A DNA stretch of 64,000 nt, from positions 1 to 64,000 of the IMG/VR virus record IMGVR_UViG_3300050119_000072. One strand, 5' to 3'. Below the pieces are notes generated by a model. That model was not told where the DNA came from. It worked only from the letters and a program-made list of their open reading frames with translations, and did no database searches. Positions 2,659 through 58,777 of this stretch are shown here, piece after piece. Made by a program: the position numbers and the translations under genes. This DNA is from a virus. How positions within the stretch are numbered: the stretch's first letter is position 1; every line of letters starts with the position of its first letter.

Positions 2659-2865
2659 CTACCGCTTCCCCAGACTGCGCTGCAGTTCCTCGGCTTGGCG
2701 CTTCCACCGCTCCTGCACGGCGCGTCCGGTGGGGGATTTCATCGGTGTGCCACGGATGGCCTTGTTCGTGCAGCCAAGACAGATGCCGCTATCGACGGCA
2801 CCTCCCTTCCCGCACTCGGCGCATTTCCGGTCGAGGTGCACGGTAACGGTTGGGGCGCTGGTCAT
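2659..2865 (-). CDS. Small zinc-ribbon protein
   Basis: CAEC...CLGC; coupled to neighbours. Confidence 0.6.
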   Translation of the reverse strand: MTSAPTVTVHLDRKCAECGKGGAVDSGICLGCTNKAIRGTPMKSPTGRAVQERWKRQAEELQRSLGKR

Positions 2866-3113
2866 GCTGCATCTTCCTTTGGTTTTGCCGCCTTTGGCTT
2901 GCCGGCGGCGATCCACTCGACGAGATCTGCGCGATTGTCCTTGACCCAATTCAATGTCTCCAAGGCGGTCTCCATGATGGCGACGTGCATGTCGGCCTCG
3001 GCTTGGCTGCGGAAGGCTTTGCCGGCGCCGATCTGACGAGGGTAAACCTTGGCCCGCATTTTCAATTCGCGCTCAACCTCGGAGATTTGGGCCTGGATGG
3101 AGTGCTTGCTCAT
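2862..3113 (-). CDS. Conserved-looking phage hypothetical protein
   Basis: QISEVERELKMRAKVYPR helix motif; ATGA overlaps. Confidence 0.7.
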   Translation of the reverse strand: MSKHSIQAQISEVERELKMRAKVYPRQIGAGKAFRSQAEADMHVAIMETALETLNWVKDNRADLVEWIAAGKPKAAKPKEDAA

Positions 3114-3307
3114 TCCGGCCACCGTCCCTTTCCACAATCACCGCACTGATGCTGCCATAGGCCGTCGCTTTCGCGCTTGCGCCCGCGCCAGCCGTCCTCT
3201 TTCGCCCGGCCCCACAACGCGCCGAATTCCTCGCCATCGCTGCCGGCGATGAACTCGCCGCAGCCGTCGCAGACAAAGTTGATGACGCCCTTCTGCCGCT
3301 CGATCAT
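3110..3307 (-). CDS. Small zinc-ribbon protein
   Basis: CDGC ... GW ... HQCGDC. Confidence 0.7.
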   Translation of the reverse strand: MIERQKGVINFVCDGCGEFIAGSDGEEFGALWGRAKEDGWRGRKRESDGLWQHQCGDCGKGRWPE

Positions 3308-3708
3308 CGGCGCCCTCGCAGGTCGTTGCGGCTCATGATCTTGCGGTTGCCTTCGGGGAACGGTCGCGACGGTATCTTCTGCTTACGGCGTGGCTTATTG
3401 AGCCCCTGCGCCCGCCGCACCTTGGCGCGTTTGTTTGCGTCCGAGCCCGCGCTGGTCGCCGGCGAGCCATAGGTCTTTATTGAGTTGCAGCTCGTGCGGC
3501 CGCCCTGCGTACACAGCGCTTGAAAGGTATCCGGCTCGTCGCTGCCGGTGAACACCCTCTGGTCGATGTGGTCAAATACGCAGGTCTTGGCCGTGATCGG
3601 AACGCCGCACTCAATGCCCCGATTCGGCAGCCCTGGGCACTTGCCGCCCTGCCGCGCGAGGATTGCGGCCTTCTCTTTGTCGGTGAGCTTGCGGCGCCGA
3701 TCGGCCAT
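3304..3708 (-). CDS. HNH endonuclease-like protein
   Basis: QGGKC..C..FDH...QALC..C..KT with basic tail. Confidence 0.75.
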   Translation of the reverse strand: MADRRRKLTDKEKAAILARQGGKCPGLPNRGIECGVPITAKTCVFDHIDQRVFTGSDEPDTFQALCTQGGRTSCNSIKTYGSPATSAGSDANKRAKVRRAQGLNKPRRKQKIPSRPFPEGNRKIMSRNDLRGRR

Positions 3709-3941
3709 TAGACGCGCTCCAATCGCAGGGGCAGGATCGCATGCGCCTCGTCGGCCGGGGTGGTAACCACGCCTTCGCTCACCTGTTCGGTCCCGCGATG
3801 GATGGCGCGGCGCATCGCGTCGATGAAATCTTCGCTCTCCCGGCGCCGGCGCACTAGCCAGAAGCTTCCATCGGTATCCCCCTCGTCGTCAGGATCGAGA
3901 CCGTGCGGCGGATGACGGCACTTTTTCCCCTTGGTGCTCAT
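3708..3941 (-). CDS. Hypothetical protein
   Basis: GGAGG SD, overlaps neighbours. Confidence 0.55.
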   Translation of the reverse strand: MSTKGKKCRHPPHGLDPDDEGDTDGSFWLVRRRRESEDFIDAMRRAIHRGTEQVSEGVVTTPADEAHAILPLRLERV

Positions 3942-4153
3942 TGCGCCCTCCAATACACGCGCCGGAAGCCCTTCGGCAGAGGCTCGGAGGATTCATGAAC
4001 ACGCCCGGTGGCAGCGAGGGTGCGGCAAGCGTTGTTGACCGTTGTTGGCGACCAGCAATCGATGCGCTTCCAAATTTCGCGGGAGCATCGCGGCTTGGCG
4101 TCGATTGCCGCCTCGACCATGGCAATCGTTTGCGGGCTCTGATGTGTAGTCAT
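3938..4153 (-). CDS. Small winged-HTH-like protein
   Basis: SREI...SPTTVNNACRTL...GRV pattern; AAGGAGG SD. Confidence 0.55.
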   Translation of the reverse strand: MTTHQSPQTIAMVEAAIDAKPRCSREIWKRIDCWSPTTVNNACRTLAATGRVHESSEPLPKGFRRVYWRAQ

Positions 4154-4311
4154 GTGGCCTCCTTCTTTTTACGCGGTGCTCGTTTAACGGGGATGGCGGC
4201 GACAGCCCGCCGCAGGTCGGGAACGGATTGCGCTGGCAGCTTGGCACTCTTGAAGCGCTGCTCGCGCATGGCGCGGAGAGCATCGGCCTTTGGCGAAGGC
4301 TGCTTGCTCAC
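4150..4311 (-). CDS. Small basic protein
   Basis: GTG start with AGGAG SD, overlaps both neighbours. Confidence 0.5.
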   Translation of the reverse strand: MSKQPSPKADALRAMREQRFKSAKLPAQSVPDLRRAVAAIPVKRAPRKKKEAT

Positions 4312-4604
4312 GCCACGCGCTCCTGCTTCTTTGCCACGGACGGCGCCGGCTGCATGAGGCGGCGAATGGCGTCGACAATGGCGCTTTCCATATCGTCTTC
4401 GCCGGTCTGTGAATTGAGGCAAGCTATCCCGTCCACAAACCATCGCTTGGTGACGATGCCATCAAGGCTCTTTAGTTCATCGCAGCGCGATAGGCGCGGG
4501 AATTGCTCGCAGCGATACCACATGCGCCATTCGCCGCTCGGGAGGACGATCATATCGCCTTCCGTTTTGTACGTGGCTCGCTTTATGTCGGCTCCGGTAA
4601 TCAT
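4308..4604 (-). CDS. Hypothetical protein
   Basis: Start MITGAD with GGGAG SD. Confidence 0.55.
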   Translation of the reverse strand: MITGADIKRATYKTEGDMIVLPSGEWRMWYRCEQFPRLSRCDELKSLDGIVTKRWFVDGIACLNSQTGEDDMESAIVDAIRRLMQPAPSVAKKQERVA

Positions 4605-4623
4605 GCGCGGTGGCTCCCTCTGT

Positions 4624-4872
4624 TCAAGTCGTGAATTTCTTATCGATATGCACTTTCGTATTCGGGCCGATGCCGCCGGCAAAGGCCTCAAGCAAGACCT
4701 GCTCTGTCTCGGCGGCGGTGATGAGAATGTCGTGGGGAATGTCCATGTCGGCGGCTTTGATCTCGATATAGCCGCTCAAGCCCATGGAGCGGAGACGATC
4801 GAGATTGGCGTGTGACAGGCCAAGCAGCACAACGCGGGTGCCATCGGGATTTACCAGGATGGCTTTCATCAT
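4624..4872 (-). CDS. Hypothetical protein
   Basis: 82 aa, VLLGLSHANLDRL motif, coding-like composition. Confidence 0.65.
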   Translation of the reverse strand: MMKAILVNPDGTRVVLLGLSHANLDRLRSMGLSGYIEIKAADMDIPHDILITAAETEQVLLEAFAGGIGPNTKVHIDKKFTT

Positions 4873-4986
4873 GCCGCAACCCCGCTTATAGGTGCCACCC
4901 TGGCCGCCGCGGGAATTGTGGGGGGATCGGCAGCCAGGGTGGGCTTTACCGCAGCGTCGGGGGAACGGACGCGTGCGGATGGGGAA

Positions 4987-5430
4987 TTACCAAGGACATG
5001 CCTCGCCGACCAGGTCCTGGACGCGGGCGTAGACATCGCGGCGCTCGACGCGCGGAAGATAGAGTTCAAAAATCTTTTCCACGGACTCGGCGCGGAACAC
5101 CGAGAAGTCCGGGCCCGACATGGCGTCGAAGGCAACCGACTTGTATTGCTTCCACGTCCCAAAGACTGGCGACGTGTAGACGTTGTGCCAAAGCTGGCAG
5201 TGGTCTTTGAGCTCCAGCTTGAGTATTTCTGGCGGCTTGCCGAGTCCCTCGGCAACCACCCCGACCAAAGCGTGCCACCACCGGTTTTCCGGTGACGATC
5301 GGTCGTAACTGATGCGGACCACGAGCGGCTTGCCACGGCGCACGCGCTCGAGCACCGCAAGATCATCCATTGTGCAGGGGATGATGCTCGGGGTCGGCCG
5401 CAGGGTGAATTCACCGCGAAATGCCACCAT
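4987..5430 (-). CDS. DUF1367/NinB-like recombination-associated protein
   Basis: RS..NR.WHAL...KSVAFDAM...F..F pattern, next to YqaJ/ERF. Confidence 0.6.
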   Translation of the reverse strand: MVAFRGEFTLRPTPSIIPCTMDDLAVLERVRRGKPLVVRISYDRSSPENRWWHALVGVVAEGLGKPPEILKLELKDHCQLWHNVYTSPVFGTWKQYKSVAFDAMSGPDFSVFRAESVEKIFELYLPRVERRDVYARVQDLVGEACPW

Positions 5431-5465
5431 GTCCGTTGCTCTATCATCTGCTTACTTTCGTTCCG

Positions 5466-6107
5466 TTAACCGTTGCCCATGGCTTTGATCTTCTCGACTA
5501 GGCGCCGCAGCTCATGGTCGAAAATCTCGATGGAGTTGCTCAATTCCTTGATAAAGACCGGGTCGCGCTTGACCGGGAATATCGGCGCCTTCGGCATGCC
5601 GCGGTAGAAAAGCATGAGGTCGATCTCGTCCAATTCGCCGACCATGATGCCGCCCTGGACCTGGGCGCGGTGCTCTGGCGGCATGATGTCGCCCTTGAGC
5701 AATTGCGCGATCAATAGGTCCGGCGCCATCGTCTTGATCTCAAGCGCCTTCTTTTTTCCGATCAGGCCATCCGGGCTGTAGCCGACGATGACGTTAGTGC
5801 CCTTGATGGTGTTGCGGATAAAGCCGGTTTGGGTCACCTCGACGTTGCGGATGAAGGCATAATAATCGCGCGCTGCGGCCTCCATCCGGTTTCCTCGATC
5901 GGTATATTTGTTCGAGTATTCCTCTGCCGGCGCGCCCGTGAGCCGTTCGCCGGCCAAGCGGTAGAGCAACTTGCGGCGGGTCTTTGATGCCTCGCCGTCC
6001 TTGGCGTCGGCAAGGATGGTGGCGAAGTTCGATGCCGTCGGCAGGCCAAGCCGCAACAGCTTCCAATCCTCGGTCCCCTGGACCACGTCGTCGAACCGCT
6101 CGATCAT
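5466..6107 (-). CDS. YqaJ-like (lambda exonuclease family) recombination nuclease
   Basis: QGTEDW..LRLG..TAS, RG..ME..AR, YSPDGL, LEIK, QVQG. Confidence 0.92.
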   Translation of the reverse strand: MIERFDDVVQGTEDWKLLRLGLPTASNFATILADAKDGEASKTRRKLLYRLAGERLTGAPAEEYSNKYTDRGNRMEAAARDYYAFIRNVEVTQTGFIRNTIKGTNVIVGYSPDGLIGKKKALEIKTMAPDLLIAQLLKGDIMPPEHRAQVQGGIMVGELDEIDLMLFYRGMPKAPIFPVKRDPVFIKELSNSIEIFDHELRRLVEKIKAMGNG

Positions 6108-6355
6108 GGTGCGGCTCTTCCTGTAGTGTCCCGGTAAATCAGCCCAGGTGCGATCACGCACTCGTTCGGCGCAAGCTGGGAGAGGGCGACAAGACCGTCG
6201 TCGTCCTCGACGGCAATCCGGTCGAACACGCTCTTAGCGCCGGCAGCCGTTACGATGTAGGCCGGGATATCCAATCCGTAATGGCTGCCGCAGGACGGGC
6301 CGTGCTCGACGATCTTCCGCTCGTCGTTCATGCTGGTTGTCGTGGTATCGATCAT
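6104..6355 (-). CDS. Hypothetical protein
   Basis: ATGA-coupled between ERF and exonuclease. Confidence 0.55.
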   Translation of the reverse strand: MIDTTTTSMNDERKIVEHGPSCGSHYGLDIPAYIVTAAGAKSVFDRIAVEDDDGLVALSQLAPNECVIAPGLIYRDTTGRAAP

Positions 6356-7161
6356 GCCGCAGTCTCCCCCTGCTCGCCTGCCGCCTTCGCGGCGCCTGCC
6401 CGGAAGCCATTAAGCGCGGCGACGGCCTCGTTGAAGCGCTTGGCGGGGATCGAGGCGTAGCTGTCCACGCCCATAAAAGCGCAGAACTTGCGCTTGTCGA
6501 CGCCGTATTTGTCGGACTTGTCGATCAGATCGTCGAGCTGCTTGTCGCTGACCACCGCGTTGGAGCCGACGCCGTCGTTGTCCTCGCCGATCAGCGCCAC
6601 GTCAAAAATCAGCACTTTGAGATAGCGGCGCCCGTAGCTCACGGTCGAGCCAATTCCCTGCACGCCGGTCTTGTTGGCGCCCCCCTTTGGCCCGGTCATG
6701 TCGCTGGGCAGGTCAATGAAATAGTCGCGCGAGTGGCCGGCAACGTGCGAGAGCTTCGCCGTGATGCGGTAATGGCCCGGCATGTTGCTGTCGGCGGTGC
6801 CGTAGGAGAGCGAGAACCCGTATTTGTGCGCCACGGGGTCGATGGCGTCGCTGATATCTTCGAGCGCAGCGTACTTGTTGTTCTCGCCCTTCTTGCGCTT
6901 GACGACTCGGGGAAGCGCGACCTGGGCCATTTGCAGGGCTTCGTTGAATTGCAGTTCGGCGATGCGGGCCTTTTCAGCGTTGCCCATGTCGATCAGCGCC
7001 TGCATCTTGCCGACATCGACGGACGGGTCCTTTGCCGCAGCCAGCAATAGCTCTAGCGTGGTCCGGGGCGGTGCGGCGATCGCGATAGCGGTGCCGGTGG
7101 TCTGCTTGTGGACCGCGACGGCGCGGGATTTGGTCTTGGCTTTGGTTTTCTTCTTCGTCAT
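6352..7161 (-). CDS. erf: ERF family single-strand annealing protein
   Basis: KYAALEDI...GFSLS...LSH..GH...QGIGSTVSYGRRYL...EDNDG. Confidence 0.92.
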   Translation of the reverse strand: MTKKKTKAKTKSRAVAVHKQTTGTAIAIAAPPRTTLELLLAAAKDPSVDVGKMQALIDMGNAEKARIAELQFNEALQMAQVALPRVVKRKKGENNKYAALEDISDAIDPVAHKYGFSLSYGTADSNMPGHYRITAKLSHVAGHSRDYFIDLPSDMTGPKGGANKTGVQGIGSTVSYGRRYLKVLIFDVALIGEDNDGVGSNAVVSDKQLDDLIDKSDKYGVDKRKFCAFMGVDSYASIPAKRFNEAVAALNGFRAGAAKAAGEQGETAA

Positions 7162-9471: not shown

Positions 9472-9804
9472 TCATCCTGCGTTCATGATCGTGGCGATCT
9501 GGCTCAACGCTCTCGGCCGGTACTTAACGGCGCTCCGGCCGGAGCGGTTCTTGTGGCGCTCGTGGGTGCGCTCGATCATCTCGGCGCGCTCCAATTCGGT
9601 CAGGCGACGATTGACCGCGACATGGTCGATGCCAATCTTGTCGCCGATCTGCTCGGCGGCGAGAGGCGCAGCAGACGCATTCAATGCCCCCATGATCGCC
9701 GCATGGTGGCGCGCGGCGAGATCGTGGGCGCGCTGCGCTGCCTCTTTCGAGGTGGCTGGGTCATGCCGCCGCGCGGCTTTCTCGTAGTCGAATAGGTCAG
9801 TCAC
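9472..9804 (-). CDS. Winged-HTH (MarR-like) DNA-binding protein
   Basis: ARRHDPATSKEAA, AEQIG...VNRRLTELER...R...SGR. Confidence 0.75.
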   Translation of the reverse strand: MTDLFDYEKAARRHDPATSKEAAQRAHDLAARHHAAIMGALNASAAPLAAEQIGDKIGIDHVAVNRRLTELERAEMIERTHERHKNRSGRSAVKYRPRALSQIATIMNAG

Positions 9805-10081
9805 CGGCCAAGGCCTCCAAGAACGTGCGCCCGGCTTCGGTCAGGTCGTAGCGCTCGCCGCGATTGAGCAAGCCAAGCTCGATCGCCTGTTGCTCAAGCC
9901 GTTCGATGACCTCCGGAGGCCTCTGATCCCGCCCGCGGCAACGGCGCAGGGTGCCGGCAATGGCCTGCGACTTGTACCTGATCGAGCACTGTCGATCGAG
10001 GCAGGCGTCGCGCGCGGCGAGCATCGCGGCGGAAACGGTCACTCCGCAGCGCTCGCATTTGATTTTAACGCCGGTGTTCAT
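9797..10081 (-). CDS. Hypothetical protein (Zn ribbon plus LTEAGR wing)
   Basis: CERC...C...C; YDLTEAGR. Confidence 0.6.
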   Translation of the reverse strand: MNTGVKIKCERCGVTVSAAMLAARDACLDRQCSIRYKSQAIAGTLRRCRGRDQRPPEVIERLEQQAIELGLLNRGERYDLTEAGRTFLEALAGD

Positions 10082-10461
10082 GTTACCCCCATGGCCTTGG
10101 CGATGAATCTCTCGCTCACCTTCGGCTCTTTCGTCTCGCCGAGGATGAATTGCACGTCGATCACATCGCCGTCTTTCAGGTCGGCCCAGTGCTCGATGAT
10201 GTATCGGTGCGCGACGGCATAGGTGCGATCACTCCAAAAATACGAATCGTTCGAGCAGGCCATGCCGTCACAGGATAAGTGTGTGATGGCAATGTTCGGT
10301 TCGCCGTCGCAAGGGTAGCCGCAGCGGCGCAGTAGATAGCGCTGTGCGCCGGGGTCGGCCTTGGTGCCGTATGGCGATTCGGGGATCGTCGGGTTCATGT
10401 CCACGCACAGGAGCGGAATGAACGTGCCCTCGTCGCGCAGCTCCAGGAGTTTGACTTTCAT
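10078..10461 (-). CDS. Conserved phage hypothetical protein
   Basis: KLLELRD.GTFIP...W..RT...AH.YI..HW..L.DGDVIDVQFILGE. Confidence 0.75.
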   Translation of the reverse strand: MKVKLLELRDEGTFIPLLCVDMNPTIPESPYGTKADPGAQRYLLRRCGYPCDGEPNIAITHLSCDGMACSNDSYFWSDRTYAVAHRYIIEHWADLKDGDVIDVQFILGETKEPKVSERFIAKAMGVT

Positions 10462-10712
10462 GTGGCCCCTCCTGTCGTCGGCTCGCGCCAGATCGCGGCG
10501 CCGCCCGTCTTAAAATGGAACTGCATGCACATCCCGCACCTGCACCTGACCGGCGCGATCGCGCCAGGATCAGGGTAAGTCTCGTGGCAGGATGGGCACT
10601 CGACGATGCGCACCACGGCCATCATGCCGGGCACGAATTGCGACGGGCGCTCGCTGATTTTGAAGATGGAGCCGTAAGAGACCTCGTCGGCGTAGTCGGG
10701 GACCTCGGCCAT
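10458..10712 (-). CDS. Small zinc-ribbon protein
   Basis: CPSC...CRCG; TAATG coupling. Confidence 0.55.
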   Translation of the reverse strand: MAEVPDYADEVSYGSIFKISERPSQFVPGMMAVVRIVECPSCHETYPDPGAIAPVRCRCGMCMQFHFKTGGAAIWREPTTGGAT

Positions 10713-43140: not shown

Positions 43141-44466
43141 ATGCCTGCACCGGACAAGCAGACCCAAGAGAGAGAATCGGCGGACCGCGCCAAAGCGGGC
43201 GTAGTCCCCGGGGAGGGCGGCGAAGCCCTCAATGCCATCGACGACGGCGCGCCAGGCGCCGATCCCGCACCGGCAGCCCGGCAAGCGCCGGCAGCCGAAC
43301 CCGCACCGAAGCCTGCGCCCGTCCCGCGCAGTCGGCAGGACGACGCGCGCAACGCCATCACGGCGCGCTTCCGCACCGATCGCGGGCAGGAAGCCGCAGA
43401 CAACGCCGACGATGTGAGCGAATTCACCCGCAGCGGCATGCCTCCGGAATTCGCGGAGAACAACGCGGCTGTCGCCGAACCGCCGCCGCAAGAACCCGAG
43501 CCGGCCGCGCCAGAGCCCACTGCCGCTGAGCCCGTCGCACTGCCCAAGACCGTGAAGGTCAAGGTGCGCGGCCAGGAGCAGGAACTCCCGCTCGAAACCG
43601 TTATTGCCGAAGCGCAAAAGGCGCTCGCCGGCGAAAGCTATCTCAGCGAAGGCCGAAAAGCGCTCGAAGAGATCGAGCGCCGCCTTCGCGCGACCCCAGA
43701 TCCGGCTGTACGTGGCCAGACGCAGCAACACCCCGCTGCGACGAACGACGTGCAGCCTACTGCCCCGGCTCCCGCCGATGGCGTCGATCCTCAGCACCCC
43801 GAGGACCTGATCCAGAAGCTTATGGAGACGATGCAATTTGGCGACCCCGCCGAAGCCCGCAACCTGCTCGAAAACACCCTTTCGGGAATGGTCGCAGCCA
43901 AAGTGGCGCCCGCCGTCAACGCGGCACTGCAATCCGATCGCCTTAAAGACGAAGGCGCCAAGACCGCAGCCGTCCTCGCTGACTTTGAGACCAAGCACGC
44001 CGACATTGCAGCCGATCCACGCGCTCGCGCGGTGATCGAGCAAGATGTCATCGGCCAACAGGTCGATGATCTCCGCAAGCTCGGCGTCGACCCCGCCAAG
44101 ATCAGGCCAGACGGATTGTCCCCGACACCAGGGGACATTGCCGAGGCCCACAAATGGTATCGCTCGCAAGGGCACAAGCTGACCACTCCGGCAGACATGC
44201 TCGAGACCGGCTTGAAAAATTACCTCGATTGGCGCGGGCCGAAAACGAACACGCCACCGGCCAACCCGGCAACGCCGCCAACGCTCGACGTCACTGTCGA
44301 TCGCACGGTGCGCCGCCAGGCCATCCCACAACAGCCCGGACGAGCCGCAGTACCCCGTCAGGACCCTCAACGCAGCCAGCCCGCGCCAGCGCGGGACCGC
44401 TCGAGGATCGTCCAAGACGAGATCGCACGGCGCAACGCCCCACGGGGAAAAGTCGCCGTCAGCTAA
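43141..44466 (+). CDS. Capsid scaffolding protein
   Basis: Acidic/Pro-rich, VKVKVRGQEQE..L...I...QK motif, directly before capsid gene. Confidence 0.8.
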   Translation: MPAPDKQTQERESADRAKAGVVPGEGGEALNAIDDGAPGADPAPAARQAPAAEPAPKPAPVPRSRQDDARNAITARFRTDRGQEAADNADDVSEFTRSGMPPEFAENNAAVAEPPPQEPEPAAPEPTAAEPVALPKTVKVKVRGQEQELPLETVIAEAQKALAGESYLSEGRKALEEIERRLRATPDPAVRGQTQQHPAATNDVQPTAPAPADGVDPQHPEDLIQKLMETMQFGDPAEARNLLENTLSGMVAAKVAPAVNAALQSDRLKDEGAKTAAVLADFETKHADIAADPRARAVIEQDVIGQQVDDLRKLGVDPAKIRPDGLSPTPGDIAEAHKWYRSQGHKLTTPADMLETGLKNYLDWRGPKTNTPPANPATPPTLDVTVDRTVRRQAIPQQPGRAAVPRQDPQRSQPAPARDRSRIVQDEIARRNAPRGKVAVS

Positions 44467-44502: not shown

Positions 44503-47500
44503 ATGGCAGGGCAACTCTGGGTTAATGCCCCCATCTGATCGCAAGATCAGAATGTGCACCGGATGAATTGCTGGGATAGCCTTAGAGCCTTGATCGCTAC
44601 AGCGTGGCCCGCAAGGGCGAGCGCGAACGCGAAAAAGATCAAGGATTGGCCAATCAGCAGCCAAGCGCCATAGGAATATGGCGAAGGTTCAACGACTAGG
44701 TAAAGTAATCCAGACCGGATGAAATGCCCAAGAGCCTCCGGGACTTCACTGCCAATAATTGAGGTATACGCGGCGCTTTCTGCGAAGAGAGATAGTAGCG
44801 TCGCGGTAAATCCAGTGCAGCACCTTCGCGCTGCCACCATATCCTGACAACCTCCAGCATTCTTTTGCTCTGGCCTTCGTAAGGCTTATGCCAGTGTGAG
44901 TGTGGATGGCGTTCGCAACACCATCAATAAAAGCGGACGTACCAAGAAAATAGAACGCCTTTTTCGGCAACGCGCGAATGTGCCCGTCGCCGTCTAAAGA
45001 ACCTCTCAGAAAATGTCGTTCTAAATGCCATGGAATGTTGGGATATCGAAGCGTCACCGACTTACCGGGAACGATGCCGTGTTTCGCTAGATCAGCTACG
45101 AGCTTCTTGCTGTCGAATGTAATCTGTTTTCGCGGGCCTGATCCTGGAAAACCACCAGGGGCCTTATCGAAAACACGAGCATCCGATTGCATCGCTCGCC
45201 GCAGATCATAAAGAATGTGTTTGTCTCGCACCTGTAGGGCAATACTGACTTGCTTTCCAGACCGAGAGACAGACCCATCGGCTGAAAGAAGGCCAAGGGC
45301 GTAAGCCTTTTGCTCGGTGTTAATTACCGCAAAAAAGTCGTGATCGAGGGCGTACCGATTGACCCTCGGCTTCGTTGGAATGCCGTAATGCCGTCTCCAA
45401 TCGCCAACTGATCGGCCAGTAACGCCGAACATCTTGCCGATTTGCTCATCGTGCTTGGTCTCGTAAAGCGCCATGAGCTTTGTTTTGGATACGCGCATTC
45501 GTGGTAACCTCCGGTACATACGTGTATCGTACCAGCAGAAGAAGTCAAGATATAGTCTGTGCTGCATGGAGACATGCAGGAGCGCTTCATAAACAGGAGC
45601 GCGCGAACATCAGCGATACCCGCCGAGGGTGGATATATGTACAGCGACGAGCTGTCCGATGTCCTCCGTCAGCAGGTTCAGCCCCTGACCAAGATGAGGC
45701 AACTTTGCGATGCCGAGGACGGCACCAAAAAGGGTCTCAATCGCGGTGATAAATACAACTGGGACGTCTATTCCAACGTCGGTACGCAAGGCCGGCGCTT
45801 GGACGAAAGCGCACCGATCCCGGAGACGGGCTTCACCATCATCCAACATCAGTTGACTGTCTACGAAGCCGGCAATTCGGTTCTCTTAAACGGAGCCGCC
45901 TTGTCTCTTGCTGCCTAGCTTCTTGATGTAGAGCCTCACTTTTGGACCGTATGTCTCGGTCTTTTTGTGGCACTCAAAACATAATGTGCGCGCGTTTGTT
46001 GGGTCTAGCGCCCGATCTAGCGCGACGCAGATTGGCTCGATGTGATCGACGTTAAGAACGATCCTTGAACCTCTGCCTTTATGATTGCGGTCCCCGCATT
46101 CTTGGCAAGTCCAACGGTCACGCTTCAATATCGATCTACGAAACTCCTTGTATGCGGCGGTATCGCGAACTCCGCCGTCACCACCGAGCCAGTTACCGTG
46201 GTCCGGACCAGATGCAATGCCGTTCGGGTATTGCGCCTTAGTCAGACCAGCATTCCAGGCCACTTGGCCTTTCTTCGATTGAAGCCACCGTTTGCGAAGC
46301 TTCGGATCATTCCGAAGTCTCTCGTTGACCTTGGACCAATCGTTGAACGGCTCATGCCCTGGTTGAAAGCCCATCCGTTCCAATGACGGGTGATCGGCCT
46401 TTGTCAGACCGTCGTTCCATGCCGGGATATTTCCGGTTTGGGTTTTACGGCAGTTTGGATGATGCCCGCGCTTGTAAATGGGGAATGTCGCTTTCCCATT
46501 TCGATCGCGATGGCGGTAGTTAAGACGCGCCTTAAAGCGCTCTTTGCAGCCGCATTGGCAGACCTTGGTTTGATAGACGGCTTTCGTTGGCATACGGTAC
46601 ATTATACAGGAAAGCAGAAACAGAAGGCAAGGAAAATCGCGTGAAACGGGGAAACTCTCTCTGAGACAATCCCGTAGGAAGCTACCGAGGGCCTTTGGTT
46701 CGGTAGAACCTCTAGAGACTAGGCTGTGAGTCCCAACAATAATCAGCCCACGAGCGCGCGACGCGAAAGCGAAAAGATAGTCCCATCAGCACGGCGACGT
46801 GTTGGAAGCCGCGGATAAAGAGCCGCAGCGAAGAAGAAATGTCCGTACACCGGCAAGCTAGTTGCGTTGGCGAAGCATCAAGTCGCCGCGATCATCGACA
46901 AGACGTTGAAGGACGACGCGCGCAAGTATTTTGACATCGAAGCGTATTTGCAGTTCAAGAACACTGCACTGCGCGCCGAACCGTCGAGCGGCACGTCCAC
47001 CACCGCGATCAACCTCGACACCACGGGCACTGCCTCGGTGACGAACAACGTCGCGTTGGGCACCGGTCACATCAAGGCGATCGTCGACACGATGAAAGAA
47101 CGCAACGTGCCGCCATTTACGGCGGACGATTACGTTGGCGTGTCGCACCCATCGACCTGGCGTAACCTCAAGAACTCGCTCGAGACCATTCACCAATACA
47201 CGGAGACTGGCCTCGCGCACATCTTCAACGGCGAGATTGGCCGTTACGAAAGCTGCCGCTTTGTCGAGCAGACCTTCATTCCGAAGGGCGGCGCGGCAAA
47301 TGCGACGAGCTACGATCCGTGGGGCGGCGTTGCGCAGCCCTGGACTAACGGGCTCAGCTCGTGGGCTTTCATCATGGGCGGCGACACGGTGACGGAAGCC
47401 GTATGCGTGCCCGAAGAAATCCGCGCGAAAATCCCTGGTGACTTCGGCCGCTCACGCGGCATCGCCTGGTATTACCTCGGCGGCTTTGGTCTGGTCCACA

Positions 47501-47547
47501 CCGATGCGCTTAATGCGCGCGTCGTGATGTGGGACAGCGCAGCTTGA
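44503..47547 (+). CDS. Major capsid protein (N4-gp56-like), 3 exons: 44503-44521, 45614-45881, 46842-47547; about 330 aa
   Basis: Joined exons total 993 nt and read MAGQLW/AIPAEGGYMYSDELSDVLR...EAGNSV/PYTGKL...GEIGRYE..RFVEQT...EEIRAKIPGDFGRSRGIAWYYLGGFG; AAGGA SD; first junction uncertain by a few nt. Confidence 0.88.
44522..45613 (+). ncRNA. Group I intron 1 in capsid gene
   Basis: P GAATTGCTGGGA, Q AATCAGCAGCC, R GGTTCAACGACTA, S AAGATATAGTCT; P2 ctgatc-GCAA-gatcag; P9 ctgcatg-GAGA-catgcag. Confidence 0.9.
44746..45498 (-). CDS. Intron-encoded two-motif LAGLIDADG homing endonuclease (antisense to intron)
   Basis: YALGLLSADGSV and FLRGSLDGDGHI; N-terminal HTH-like; GGAGGT SD before ATG at 45498. 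Confidence 0.9.
   Translation of the reverse strand: MRVSKTKLMALYETKHDEQIGKMFGVTGRSVGDWRRHYGIPTKPRVNRYALDHDFFAVINTEQKAYALGLLSADGSVSRSGKQVSIALQVRDKHILYDLRRAMQSDARVFDKAPGGFPGSGPRKQITFDSKKLVADLAKHGIVPGKSVTLRYPNIPWHLERHFLRGSLDGDGHIRALPKKAFYFLGTSAFIDGVANAIHTHTGISLTKARAKECWRLSGYGGSAKVLHWIYRDATISLRRKRRVYLNYWQ
45886..46593 (-). CDS. Intron-encoded HNH homing endonuclease with NUMOD-like repeats (antisense)
   Basis: CQCGC, two (P/V)AWN.GLTK repeats, RDRWTCQECG, LNVDHI, NARTLCFECHKKT. Confidence 0.9.
   Translation of the reverse strand: MPTKAVYQTKVCQCGCKERFKARLNYRHRDRNGKATFPIYKRGHHPNCRKTQTGNIPAWNDGLTKADHPSLERMGFQPGHEPFNDWSKVNERLRNDPKLRKRWLQSKKGQVAWNAGLTKAQYPNGIASGPDHGNWLGGDGGVRDTAAYKEFRRSILKRDRWTCQECGDRNHKGRGSRIVLNVDHIEPICVALDRALDPTNARTLCFECHKKTETYGPKVRLYIKKLGSKRQGGSV
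46601..46630 (-). promoter_or_regulatory. Sigma70-like promoter for intron-2 HNH (leaderless)
   Basis: Minus strand TTGCCT-N18-TATAAT-N7-ATG. Confidence 0.7.
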
Positions 47548-47562
47548 GGAGGGTCAGCACAC

Positions 47563-48315
47563 ATGGCATACGAACAGGCTGACATTCGCGAGTATAGCTG
47601 GGGTCTAGATCAGACCTTCGGCGCCACCACCGTCACGCATCAGATCGTCGGGCCCAAGGGCAAGGTCGGTTTTGTGCGCGATATCTCGGTCGATTGCGCC
47701 ACGTCGTTCTCTGGAACGGTTATTCCGGAAATCGACATTGGCCTTTCCTCTGGCGATTACACCTTTGGGCGCTATCGTCTTGGAACGACCGCGTCCTCCG
47801 GTTACGGCGTTGGCCCGCACAGCGCGAGCCAGGAGGCCATCACCGGCAACCCGCCGCGCACTCTTGCGGATTACACGGGCCACGTCGTTCTCGACGGCGG
47901 CCCGCTCACGTCGCAAGGCATCGCCGGCGGCTCGTACAGCACGCAAGTGCCGGCGGGCCGTATTCCGGCATCGGGCTGGACGATCACGAACGTCGTCAAT
48001 GGCACTAGCAACGTCTGTCGCGTTTACGCGAACGGATTGTCGGCGGCGCCTGGTGGCATTCAGGTCGGACAGACCGTGACGGTGCAGGGCGTCAGTGGCG
48101 CTACCGGCGTCAACGGCATCGCCAAAGTGTCGGCGGTCGACACCACGAACTACCAGTGGTTCGAACTCGGCGGCACGACCTTCGGCGGCACTTACACCAA
48201 CGGAGGTATCGCCTTCCTGAGCGTGTTCGTGACCTTGCTGCAGGGCACGGGTTCTGGCGCTGGCGGCGGTTACGTCCGCGTCAAGATCCAGTGGATCGGT
48301 CCGGATACGCCGTAA
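47563..48315 (+). CDS. Capsid decoration/minor head protein
   Basis: Follows MCP, AGGAG SD; GPKGKVG.VRDI; inserted beta domain VGQTVTVQGVSG.T.VNG. Confidence 0.7.
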   Translation: MAYEQADIREYSWGLDQTFGATTVTHQIVGPKGKVGFVRDISVDCATSFSGTVIPEIDIGLSSGDYTFGRYRLGTTASSGYGVGPHSASQEAITGNPPRTLADYTGHVVLDGGPLTSQGIAGGSYSTQVPAGRIPASGWTITNVVNGTSNVCRVYANGLSAAPGGIQVGQTVTVQGVSGATGVNGIAKVSAVDTTNYQWFELGGTTFGGTYTNGGIAFLSVFVTLLQGTGSGAGGGYVRVKIQWIGPDTP

Positions 48316-48629: not shown

Positions 48630-49343
48630 CTACAGTAAGCGTCCGTTCCTTTGCGCAAAGACAAGCGGGTCTGTCGCGTGCTTTTCCCGATTGCATTTAA
48701 TACAAAGTAACTGAATGTTCTCAATGTAATTTGAGCCGCCTTTTGCTAATGGAACATAATGGTCGACTTCGTACTTTCCATTTAGCCTGCGGAAACAGAA
48801 CGCGCATTTGCCGGACTGTTTATCATATAGGGCGTTGACTTGTTTCTGCGTGTGGCGACCTGCTGCCCCTCTTTCTTTGGCGCGACGGTTGCGGCGTTTT
48901 TGTTTACGCACGTCAGGATGACGTTTCTCCCACGCGCGTTTGGTGGCGTTTATCCGTATTTTGTGGCGCTCTCGGATGCGCCTGTCTTGTTTTCTTACTT
49001 TCGCAGGGTGCGTTTGCCTTTCTTTCTTATGTTTCTCTCTAATCGTTTCCGCGTTCCGCGAATAATAATCTTCGCCACAAGCTCGCAGCCCTTTTTGATA
49101 CGCCTTAGCGCGCGGTAGTTCTACGTCTCTATTCCTCTCGTAGTGCCTGCGCCTCGCAGCCTTTTTCTTCGACGGATTTGCTGCGCTCCATATACGATAG
49201 GCTTCTGCGCAACACTCAACACATTGATTTTGGTGAGTGTAGCGCTCGCATACATGACCGTTCTTGCACGAGACGCCAGAGTAATAACGCTTTAGCCCAG
49301 CGGCTTTGGCGTCGCGTCTACGCAGAATCATGGTGGTGCCCAT
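48630..49343 (-). CDS. Free-standing HNH endonuclease
   Basis: AK..GLKRYYSG..CKNGH..ERY...CVEC; QSGKCAFC...VDHYVPLAKGGSN...NIQLLC..CN..K. Confidence 0.92.
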   Translation of the reverse strand: MGTTMILRRRDAKAAGLKRYYSGVSCKNGHVCERYTHQNQCVECCAEAYRIWSAANPSKKKAARRRHYERNRDVELPRAKAYQKGLRACGEDYYSRNAETIREKHKKERQTHPAKVRKQDRRIRERHKIRINATKRAWEKRHPDVRKQKRRNRRAKERGAAGRHTQKQVNALYDKQSGKCAFCFRRLNGKYEVDHYVPLAKGGSNYIENIQLLCIKCNREKHATDPLVFAQRNGRLL

Positions 49344-49393
49344 GACAAAAACTAGCACCGCCCCACGATAGCAATCAACCGAAAGGAAACACA

Positions 49394-49708
49394 ATGGCTA
49401 AAGATATGTCGAAGGGTCCCTACAAAAAGGATCACCCAGAAAATTTTATTGAAGGAGCCTTGACCGGTGGTCATGGTCCCTCGGAAGGCATCCACGAAAC
49501 GCACGTCGATCGCCCGCACCAGACCATCAATACCGCGGTCGCAATGGACAACGTCAAGCTCGCAATGCCGATCAAGACCTCGATCCTCGACGATGAGTTC
49601 CCCGGCGGCGTGGACAACCTCAAGCATTCACTCAGCGGCGCGTCCGCGGTGAACGAGGAAGTCGGCGCGGCTGGACCGGTACGCCACATTATCGTACCTG
49701 GGCATTGA
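49394..49708 (+). CDS. Hypothetical head-associated protein
   Basis: AAGGA SD; NLKHSLSGASA motif. Confidence 0.7.
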   Translation: MAKDMSKGPYKKDHPENFIEGALTGGHGPSEGIHETHVDRPHQTINTAVAMDNVKLAMPIKTSILDDEFPGGVDNLKHSLSGASAVNEEVGAAGPVRHIIVPGH

Positions 49709-58111: not shown

Positions 58112-58777
58112 CTATATCAGGCGTCCGGTCTCGCGTGCATAGTCGATGGGGTCCTTGCGGCCCTTCGCCATGTTGCATGCGGGACAAAGGACTTGAATGT
58201 TCTTTGGCCAATTTGAGCCGCCCTTAGATAAGGGAATGATGTGGTCGACGTGATATTGTCTGCCCAGTTTCTTTGGGCAATAAGCGCACTGGCCGGATTG
58301 GCGCTTTATGATGCTTGCCACGTCTGAGGCGGTATGAACGCCTTCGGCATGCTTCTCTCGTGCGCGGCGCGCGCGTGAAGCGTTCGCGCGTTGCGTCGGA
58401 TATCTCTTCGCGTATTCGCGCCATAACGCGCGGCGAACGGATGGCGGCCTGTTCTTTGACTTTGCCACCAACGCAGCCCATTTTTCTGGGTTGCGGCGTT
58501 TCCAATCTCTTAGTTTCTCACGGCGGACTGCCTTGTCTTTTTTGTTAACGTGCTTTCTCCAATAAGCTCTGCACCGCTCTCTATTGTTTTCCTGCCATAT
58601 TTTTCCATAGTTTTTGTCTCTTGGTTTTTTGCATTTGATACAGGCGACACATCTTCCTTCGTAAACGTATCGCTCAGAAACGTGTCCATTCGGACATGGC
58701 TCGCCCGTAAAATATCGCTTTGCGCCGATAGCGCGAGCTTCGCTCTTAGACAGAATCGGGTGCTGCGGATCGGCCAT
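58112..58777 (-). CDS. Free-standing HNH endonuclease (paralogue of 48630 gene)
   Basis: AR.IG.KRYFTG.PCPNGH.SERY...CVAC; QSGQCAYC...HVDHIIPLSKGGSN...NIQVLC..CN..K. Confidence 0.92.
   Translation of the reverse strand: MADPQHPILSKSEARAIGAKRYFTGEPCPNGHVSERYVYEGRCVACIKCKKPRDKNYGKIWQENNRERCRAYWRKHVNKKDKAVRREKLRDWKRRNPEKWAALVAKSKNRPPSVRRALWREYAKRYPTQRANASRARRAREKHAEGVHTASDVASIIKRQSGQCAYCPKKLGRQYHVDHIIPLSKGGSNWPKNIQVLCPACNMAKGRKDPIDYARETGRLI

Follow-up and report, generated by a model that had tools for sequence, protein, structure and literature searches.

Introns in the major capsid genes of phages have already been published. In the case of mycobacteriophage LittleE, splicing was shown by reverse transcription polymerase chain reaction (RT-PCR) and N-terminal sequencing (Pope et al. 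2013, PMC3706429), and the same article cites a further capsid-gene intron, that of lactococcal phage Tuc2009. Here we describe the major capsid gene at positions 44,503 to 47,547 of a 64,000-nucleotide (nt) stretch of viral DNA, in the following called the window. The window is the first 64 kb of IMG/VR record IMGVR_UViG_3300050119_000072, which is 86,655 bp long, has direct terminal repeats and is rated 100% complete. An initial interpretation of the letters (the sequence-only reading) had proposed two group I introns in this gene and had set them apart from the phage introns known so far; given LittleE and Tuc2009, that claim of novelty was overstated. The two cases are alike in that the most highly expressed structural gene is interrupted by an intron, self-splicing in LittleE and predicted to be so here, with a putative homing endonuclease, and in that the fused parts are colinear with intron-less relatives. 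In LittleE there is a single intron, which ends in G and follows an exon ending in U, whereas here two introns, a first exon of 19 nt and an odd 5' junction are found, and splicing is deduced from DNA. The endonuclease genes are antisense in the present case.

A single phage gene or late operon can hold several group I introns, as is known, from the references of PMC6669764, for Staphylococcus phage Twort and, in two late genes, for Lactobacillus phage JCL1032. The multiplicity of introns is shared with the present case, while genes and hosts differ from ours; antisense endonuclease genes and exons of 15-19 nt are not mentioned in the reference titles. Phage introns with a similar core belong to the same ribozyme core families and differ in insertion site, host gene and endonuclease. 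Antisense homing endonuclease genes have been described in the group I introns L2066 and S956 of nuclear ribosomal DNA (rDNA) in fungi and myxomycetes (PMC9548176). As in our case, ribozyme and endonuclease gene are on opposite strands of the same intron. The rDNA introns are eukaryotic and nuclear, encode His-Cys box enzymes and have spliceosomal introns within the endonuclease gene, whereas here a phage protein-coding gene is interrupted, the enzymes are of the LAGLIDADG and HNH types and the expression signals are of bacterial type. A literature search, with subscription journals outside its range, gave no report of an antisense endonuclease gene in a bacterial or phage group I intron, and a term search of a 2014 review of bacterial group I introns (PMC3984707) gave no hit for antisense, opposite, orientation or capsid.

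On sequence grounds, we consider it very likely that the window carries one capsid gene in three exons, separated by two group I introns that hold antisense endonuclease genes in peripheral loops, and that splicing would give a protein of 330 amino acids (aa). The parts of the gene are as follows.

44503 to 44521, plus strand: capsid exon 1, 19 nt, MAGQLW and the first base of codon 7
44522 to 45613, plus strand: predicted group I intron 1, 1,092 nt, its tail ending in G45613
45614 to 45881, plus strand: capsid exon 2, 268 nt, residues 7 to 96, ending ...EAGNSV (placed by tblastn and by alignment with the relative P0004)
45882 to 46841, plus strand: predicted group I intron 2, 960 nt, last exon base U45881, last intron base G46841
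46842 to 47547, plus strand: capsid exon 3, 706 nt including the stop codon, residues 96 (third base) to 330, PYTGKL...WDSAA

As the sequence-only reading had stated, there is no intact capsid open reading frame (ORF): the ORF listing of the plus strand gives fragments only, of 119 aa (45559-45918) and of 226 aa from a TTG (46867-47547). Joining 44503-44521, 45614-45881 and 46842-47547 results in 993 nt, i.e. 330 codons and a stop, without an internal stop. The product is identical to the intron-less P0004, the best relative, at 323 of 330 positions and aligns without gaps, so that the 330-aa protein expected after removal of two elements was recovered. A ribosome site of the AAGGAA type lies ~9 nt 5' of ATG 44503, and the codons ATG GCA GGG CAA CTC TGG at this position encode MAGQLW, which is exactly the N-terminus of the intron-less relatives and also opens the annotated capsid proteins of E. 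coli phage PTXU04 and Vibrio phage 1.232.O. P0004 reads MAGQLW-AIPAEGGYMYSDEL... and ...EAGNSV-PYTGKL..., and the exon 3 protein is 97% identical to it. The first exon is as tiny as had been noticed, with a length of 19 nt (six codons and one base) in place of the 18 nt of a 6-codon exon.

Judged by phrog_1357 and PF13252, the joined product is a capsid protein. In detail, exon 3 matches phrog_1357 'major head protein' (E 1.7e-10) at profile positions 175-339 of 356 and therefore corresponds to the rear two thirds of the protein. With PF13252 (cut-off 23 bits), the relative P0009 scores 31.5 and P0004 20.6 bits. The designation 'N4-gp56-like' proved weak, as TIGR04387 (N4-gp56, cut-off 60 bits) is not reached by P0004 (41.8), by exon 3 (37.3) or in the genome scan (36); the Joint Genome Institute (JGI) does name relatives in this way. 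A sequence search of the PDB returned no relative of the capsid protein, and an AlphaFold2 model based on an alignment of 32 close homologues had a mean predicted local distance difference test (pLDDT) score of 45. A second intact capsid gene elsewhere had been named as the observation that would speak against the split gene. None was found in the whole record, of which the 22.7 kb outside the window were searched for capsid with TIGR04387, PF05065 and the exon 3 protein: the exon 3 protein matches once, TIGR04387 gives a single sub-threshold match at the place of exon 3, and PF05065 gives none.

Alignment with intron-less homologues shows the three pieces to be colinear. In a tblastn search of 50,697 phage records, the exon 3 piece was found in 42 records and the exon 2 piece in 32. 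The exon 2 match in PTXU04 (9689-9937) directly adjoins the exon 3 match (9938-10615), and Vibrio phages among the matches listed for both pieces show the same arrangement (5968-6216 adjoining 6217-6885). Additionally, in a soil-metagenome contig of a relative (a third metagenome), 134 letters, consisting of 87 + 47 exon bases, bridge a skip of 1,094 nt; thus an intron-less allele exists and intron 2 measures 960 nt. The GNSV/PYTGKL junction is accordingly exact, as had been proposed. The interrupted form itself recurs in a second peat metagenome from another study, in eight contig pieces that show no differences and that span the borders of exon 1 with intron 1, of intron 1 with exon 2 and of intron 2 with exon 3. 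The four runs with a matching stretch are DNA contigs, and the small shares in X3 and X4 stem from relatives.

A search with the capsid protein yielded 4,220 relatives, mostly from soil and freshwater metagenomes, and most of the best 120 of these 4,220 are 330 aa long. Among 80 IMG/VR relatives found by tblastn with P0004 as query, the gene is uninterrupted in 71, truncated at a contig end in 3 and interrupted in 6 (L008, L016, L050, L051, L060 and L068). The expectation that gene callers would report only the 226-aa last exon was only partly correct: clusters of 226 aa occur in the relatives (P0021, P0045), while in this record the 226-aa TTG ORF is not called and the calls are a 93-aa piece of exon 2 and the 238-aa HNH ORF.

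Unspliced RNA read from ATG 44503 gives MAGQLWVNAPI and then meets a TGA within P2; read-through stops 5 codons after exon 1, and 12 codons after exon 2. Interrupted phage genes have other known expression routes, namely inteins, group II introns, translational bypass and excision at the DNA level, and beyond this general precedent nothing specific points to them here. The early in-frame stops, together with the restriction of long ORFs to the opposite strand, speak against an in-frame intein. There is no Rfam group II match and no reverse-transcriptase ORF, the gaps of ~1 kb are far beyond any known bypass, and the inserts have neither flanking direct repeats nor a recombinase gene. We regard any of these routes as barely credible.

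Both inserts contain ribozyme-like cores. The P, Q, R and S blocks claimed in the sequence-only reading were located in both, and the core helices P3 to P9 are present in both according to the Rfam alignments and RNAalifold. In the case of intron 1, the P8 loop holds an endonuclease ORF, in the case of intron 2 the P2 loop. The elements of the two introns, all on the plus strand, are the following.

44519-44522/44527-44530, plus strand: intron 1, P1
44535-44550, plus strand: intron 1, P2
44559-44563/44737-44741, plus strand: intron 1, P3
44566-44575, plus strand: intron 1, P element
44654-44662, plus strand: intron 1, Q
44665-44683, plus strand: intron 1, P6
44687-44700, plus strand: intron 1, R
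45547-45557, plus strand: intron 1, S
45562-45579, plus strand: intron 1, P9
45582-45602, plus strand: intron 1, P9.1
45878-45884/45892-45898, plus strand: intron 2, P1
46637-46643/46755-46761, plus strand: intron 2, P3
46644-46675, plus strand: intron 2, P4-P5
46682-46706, plus strand: intron 2, P6
46713-46723, plus strand: intron 2, R
46722-46748, plus strand: intron 2, extra hairpin
46763-46770, plus strand: intron 2, P8
46774-46783, plus strand: intron 2, S
46787-46804, plus strand: intron 2, P9
46811-46826, plus strand: intron 2, hairpin

For intron 1, RNAalifold was run on the three known copies (the window, L016 and the metagenome contig L086) and recovered P1, P2, P3, P4-P6, the P7/P3' hairpin, P9 and P9.1. 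Pairs with both sides changed were found in P2 (2), P3 (2), the P5 extension P5a (2), P6 (1), the P7/P3' hairpin (2), P9 (3) and P9.1 (2). P7, the R/S pairing, is invariant and consequently shows no covariation. For the core of intron 2, the window was aligned with L051 (same site), L016 and L091 (site 91) and L089 (another gene). Compensatory changes occur in 18 of the 37 predicted pairs, which cover P4, P5, P6, the extra hairpin, P9 and the terminal hairpin, and P3 covaries between the window and L016 on direct reading.

Similar cores are widespread in phages. The P3-P7 region of intron 1 resembles 128 phage records (Staphylococcus, Bacillus, Pseudomonas, Lactococcus and others) at 60-90% identity; one of these matches lies over a gene of Staphylococcus phage DW2 annotated as possibly disrupted and similar to tail tip hydrolase. 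From P4-P5 of intron 2, 32 nt are 97% identical in 13 records, 12 of which are Pseudomonas phages with genomes of ~280 kb. Both introns have an extra hairpin between P7 and P3', which we take to be typical of subgroup IA phage introns. The G+C content is 51.6% in intron 1 and 53.0% in intron 2, as compared to 59.3% in the exons and 61.2% in the window. Positions 46811-46841 and their equivalents in L051, L008 and L016 form a common 3' end, in which a tail of the GAAGAACA type comes after a GCGGAUAAAGAGCCGC hairpin. This end occurs on introns with different cores and different endonucleases, a hint at modular exchange of intron ends.

Each intron holds an intact endonuclease ORF in antisense orientation, which had been absent from the earlier account. 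Together with their conservation, the probable junction of intron 1 after a G and the first exon of 19 nt, these genes are what the present analysis adds to it. They are listed here with a promoter match.

44746 to 45498, minus strand: LAGLIDADG-type homing endonuclease gene, 250 aa from ATG 45498, with GGAGG before it
45886 to 46602, minus strand: HNH homing endonuclease gene, 238 aa, second ATG at 46593
46601 to 46630, minus strand: sigma-70-like promoter match, TTGCCT-18 nt-TATAAT, 10/12, ending 8 nt before the A of ATG 46593

The longest minus-strand ORF of intron 1 runs to 45567 (273 aa), and its conserved part starts at ATG 45498. It matches PF14528 (LAGLIDADG_3) with 30.2 bits (cut-off 22.5) and phrog_4645 with E 8e-47, and its translation shows two LAGLIDADG-like motifs, ...LLSADGS... 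and ...SLDGDGH.... The final codons of this gene overlap P8 (5' strand). The HNH ORF matches PF01844 with 28.9 bits (cut-off 21.4) and 20 PHROG families, 16 of them annotated as HNH endonuclease. The loop of P2 is filled by this ORF, which at its 3' end extends over P2 and the internal guide sequence and terminates within the P1 loop (stop codon 45886-88). Each of the two minus-strand frames is free of stops up to the terminal one, against 6-13 stops in the other five frames. Intron 1 of L016 carries a homologous antisense ORF with 72% aa identity, a nonsynonymous rate (dN) of 0.21 and a synonymous rate (dS) of 1.88 (dN/dS 0.11). At site 96, the intron of L008 has a related antisense helix-turn-helix (HTH)-LAGLIDADG ORF and that of L051 an antisense HNH ORF. 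Sense ORFs are found in other introns of the family, i.e. those of L008 at 53/54, L050, L060, L051 at 309/310 and L068.

A message transcribed from the promoter match at 46601-46630 would be leaderless. In front of the L051 ORF, a similarly placed TTGCTT/TACTAA pair was read by eye, 6 nt before the ATG. Two more HNH ORFs lie antisense to the late operon, at 48630-49394 (minus strand, PF01844 41 bits) and 58112-58777 (minus strand, 45.7 bits). No Rfam group I match was found near either of them, thus they may be free-standing. Altogether this indicates that antisense endonuclease genes are a habit of this phage.

Several results weigh against the interpretation as two spliced introns with antisense genes. 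Firstly, Rfam at gathering thresholds gave no matches in the whole window. With E-value reporting, which is the only setting in which the hits appear, RF00028 (gathering score 50 bits) matches intron 1 at 44513-45579 (plus strand, 47.2 bits, E 3.6e-10) and intron 2 at 46575-46804 (plus strand, 30.4 bits, E 3.9e-5); a whole-window search at E<=0.001 kept intron 1 and lost intron 2. Secondly, the covariation of intron 1 rests on three sequences, of which L086 is partly decayed in appearance. Thirdly, the junction favoured for intron 1 has G44521 and not U as the last exon base, and P1, which is GGGU/GCCC in all three loci, places the U44522.G44527 pair one base past this junction. Furthermore, no RNA run contains the stretch, so that the spliced product was not seen and we infer splicing, as well as its efficiency, from the DNA. 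Regarding the antisense genes, the promoter scan gave 2 matches against 1.9 expected from shuffles, which makes the HNH promoter a hint only, and no convincing promoter was read for the LAGLIDADG gene.

The low RF00028 scores can be traced to the large minus-strand ORF inserts (273 and 238 aa, in P8 and P2). Infernal, which had been proposed as a check, did find both inserts on the plus strand and in the right place, only below the gathering score; the remaining four Rfam matches listed have E > 1. Homologous or same-site introns lie above the cut-off, namely intron 1 of L016 (50.7 bits) and the site-96 intron of L008 (59.8 bits). The low scores and the non-canonical junction of intron 1 would also fit inserts that are no longer spliced, i.e. 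a defective phage whose capsid gene is dead or expressed in pieces, for instance from Met15, which has GAGG upstream. In line with such a start, gene callers place the beginning of the protein at the Met15 equivalent in 11 of the 120 listed relative clusters, and so does the JGI call for this record. A start at Met15 would still require removal of intron 2, however, and we know of no case in which 96- and 234-residue fragments of an HK97-type protein assemble. Moreover, the exons are without frameshift or stop and 98% identical to an intact relative, the ribozyme helices keep their pairing via compensatory changes, and the genome is complete with its terminal repeats, has a word depth of 37 in its own sample and recurs in a second one. 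A dead or divided gene is therefore highly improbable in our view.

To define the borders of the introns, an exhaustive search of donor/acceptor pairs was carried out in which the spliced translations were scored against P0004. For intron 2, three joins were equally good, one of them with U45881 and G46841. Its P1, CGGU/GCCG, extends into the intron and pairs U45881 with G45895, which conforms to the U.G rule. For intron 1, only one junction, TGGG/U...G/CG (44521/44522...45613/45614), keeps frame and length and ends the intron in G at all three loci. We favour it because it reproduces the sequence of the homologues, and intron 1 probably uses this non-canonical junction, with an exon 1 of 19 nt. 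The terminal intron G (omega G) is present in both introns under this model (G45613 and G46841), and sister introns have a similar ...AACA-N3-5-G tail, which fits G45613.

Other borders of intron 1 were considered and rejected. If the Rfam end at 45579 were the 3' splice site, the next 24 nt would be the covarying P9.1 hairpin, followed by a 1-nt indel between the window and L016; this hairpin and the indel just 5' of codon 7 indicate that 45580-45612 is not coding. Codons 7-11 (A-I/V-P-A/T-E), on the other hand, differ mostly at third positions in the three loci, thus they are coding. If exon 1 ended with its sixth codon, intron 1 of the window would have A as its terminal base. With seven codons (cleavage after U44523, acceptor G45615), the U/G rule would hold in the window, while the base is A in L016 and L086.

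In group I introns the U.G wobble is the pair conserved at the reaction site (PMC1891724), and its presence in P1 of all three loci suggests a canonical alternative for intron 1. Cleavage would then follow U44522 and ligation G45605, giving a 333-aa capsid protein with 3 extra residues after W6. If exon 1 had 20 nt, the reading frame would be kept by acceptors at G45605 in the window and at a G lying 2 nt further upstream in L016. These acceptors are at non-homologous positions in the two genomes, however, and the inserted residues would be wholly unlike, 3 in the window (333 aa) and 4 in L016 (334 aa). In L086 the corresponding segment contains an in-frame TAA. None of the full-length homologues listed has an insertion after W6, position 7 being always A, S, T, G or N, and the tail of the sister introns suits G45613. 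We thus consider canonical splicing of intron 1 unlikely and retain the junction after G44521.

Further copies of intron 1 were sought by several routes. The endonuclease protein search of IMG/VR led to the contig of L016 only, and an endonuclease alignment run against metagenome contigs gave 430 pattern matches and 0 relatives. The DNA pattern of exon 1 plus P1 was found at 1 locus in IMG/VR (the contig of L016) and at 3 in metagenome contigs, of which only L086 is the intron; in GTDB genomes there was 1 match, by chance. The L086 copy (137-1075), on a short metagenome contig of 1 kb, has a shortened antisense ORF and an insert of ~46 nt with a stop codon between the GG and MYSDEL codons of exon 2, which could be decay or an assembly error.

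Taken together, the following course of events is proposed. The late transcript would carry the single major capsid gene as three exons. After transcription each ribozyme would fold (P1-P9) and free guanosine would attack the 5' splice site, whereupon the freed exon end would attack the bond after the terminal G of the intron. The product would be the messenger RNA (mRNA) for a 330-aa HK97-type capsid protein. As the endonuclease genes are on the opposite strand, they are not encoded by the capsid pre-mRNA and would need minus-strand transcripts of their own. Cleavage of intron-less capsid alleles in co-infecting relatives by the endonucleases is presumably how the introns would spread.

Introns were also found elsewhere in this capsid family. 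Within the capsid genes of the six interrupted loci, RF00028 matches nine times, with eight scores of 50 bits or more (75.6, 69.7, 68.1, 59.8, 58.3, 54.5, 53.2 and 50.7) and one of 42.4. The introns of the family occupy at least 12 points of the gene, given here in P0004 residue numbering.

6/7: window, L016, L086
52/53: L068
53/54: L008
55/56: L060
91: L016, L091
93/94: L050, L060
96: window, L008, L051
186/187 and 191/192: L060
221/222: L091 (match ends only)
305/306: L016
309/310: L051

For all remaining introns of the relatives except the third of L016, a join conforming to the U/G rule is among the best joins. In the case of that third intron (5129-5456, 68.1 bits), the join with the best protein ends in A, and a canonical U/G alternative adds four residues. 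L060 has four introns in its capsid gene. The region near residue 187 (1586-2159) was at first a candidate for one 559-nt intron; it consists instead of two introns, 1586-1892 and 1908-2159 (Rfam 69.7 and 53.2 bits), which flank a 15-nt micro-exon of five residues (1893-1907). This exon indicates that very short exons are handled in this system.

Two further interrupted genes were observed. L091, a 96.5-kb relative, has inserts of ~1.4 and ~0.9 kb at residues ~91 and 221/222 (2841-6197), and the first of them shares its core with the window's intron 2. In the cultured Vibrio phage 1.232.O._10N.261.51.E11 (MG592596, L002:3820-4234), the capsid protein is annotated in a truncated form of 289 aa and is followed by an unannotated group I intron (RF00028 83.1 bits). 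The C-terminal exon absent from the annotation is at ~4121-4234, with an HNH gene on the sense strand just downstream.

Regarding the surroundings, the capsid locus lies within a plus-strand late operon. The upstream neighbour is a 441-aa ORF (43141-44466) without family matches. The downstream neighbour, a 250-aa ORF (47563-48315, plus strand), has a sub-threshold match to the E1 FCCH beta-barrel (23.8 vs 29.5 bits) and may be a decoration protein.

As a whole, these results bear on how such phages are recognized and on how their capsid genes would be expressed. Of 80 IMG/VR relatives, six have an interrupted capsid gene, as do this phage and one cultured Vibrio phage in GenBank; gene callers thus return fragments, and wherever the capsid serves as the marker, in detection, classification or completeness checks, it will be missed or given a wrong size. 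Hundreds of capsid subunits go into one virion, and each would depend on two working ribozymes. The A of the ATG is only 17 nt away from the beginning of P1 of intron 1, so that a ribosome at initiation would lie over the splice site and compete with its folded form for one piece of RNA, and the capsid locus would allow a direct test of the coordination of splicing and translation in bacteria. The at least 12 insertion points, three of them in one conserved block of six codons, indicate that introns have homed repeatedly into the best-conserved motifs of a structural gene.

Some of the features described go further in combination: splicing of intron 1 one base 5' of the U.G pair, correct splicing, in the late gene expressed most strongly, of exons of 15 nt and of 19 nt including the start codon, and self-promoted antisense endonuclease genes with a leaderless HNH mRNA. 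That all of these hold jointly is possible, if rather doubtful. If the antisense endonuclease genes are self-promoted, they would be a bacterial counterpart to the arrangement described for eukaryotic rDNA introns; expression of the endonucleases would be uncoupled from the late capsid message, and ribosomes would be kept out of the ribozyme. If true, this capsid family would serve as a natural laboratory for group I introns, one that deviates from textbook biology in three connected respects.

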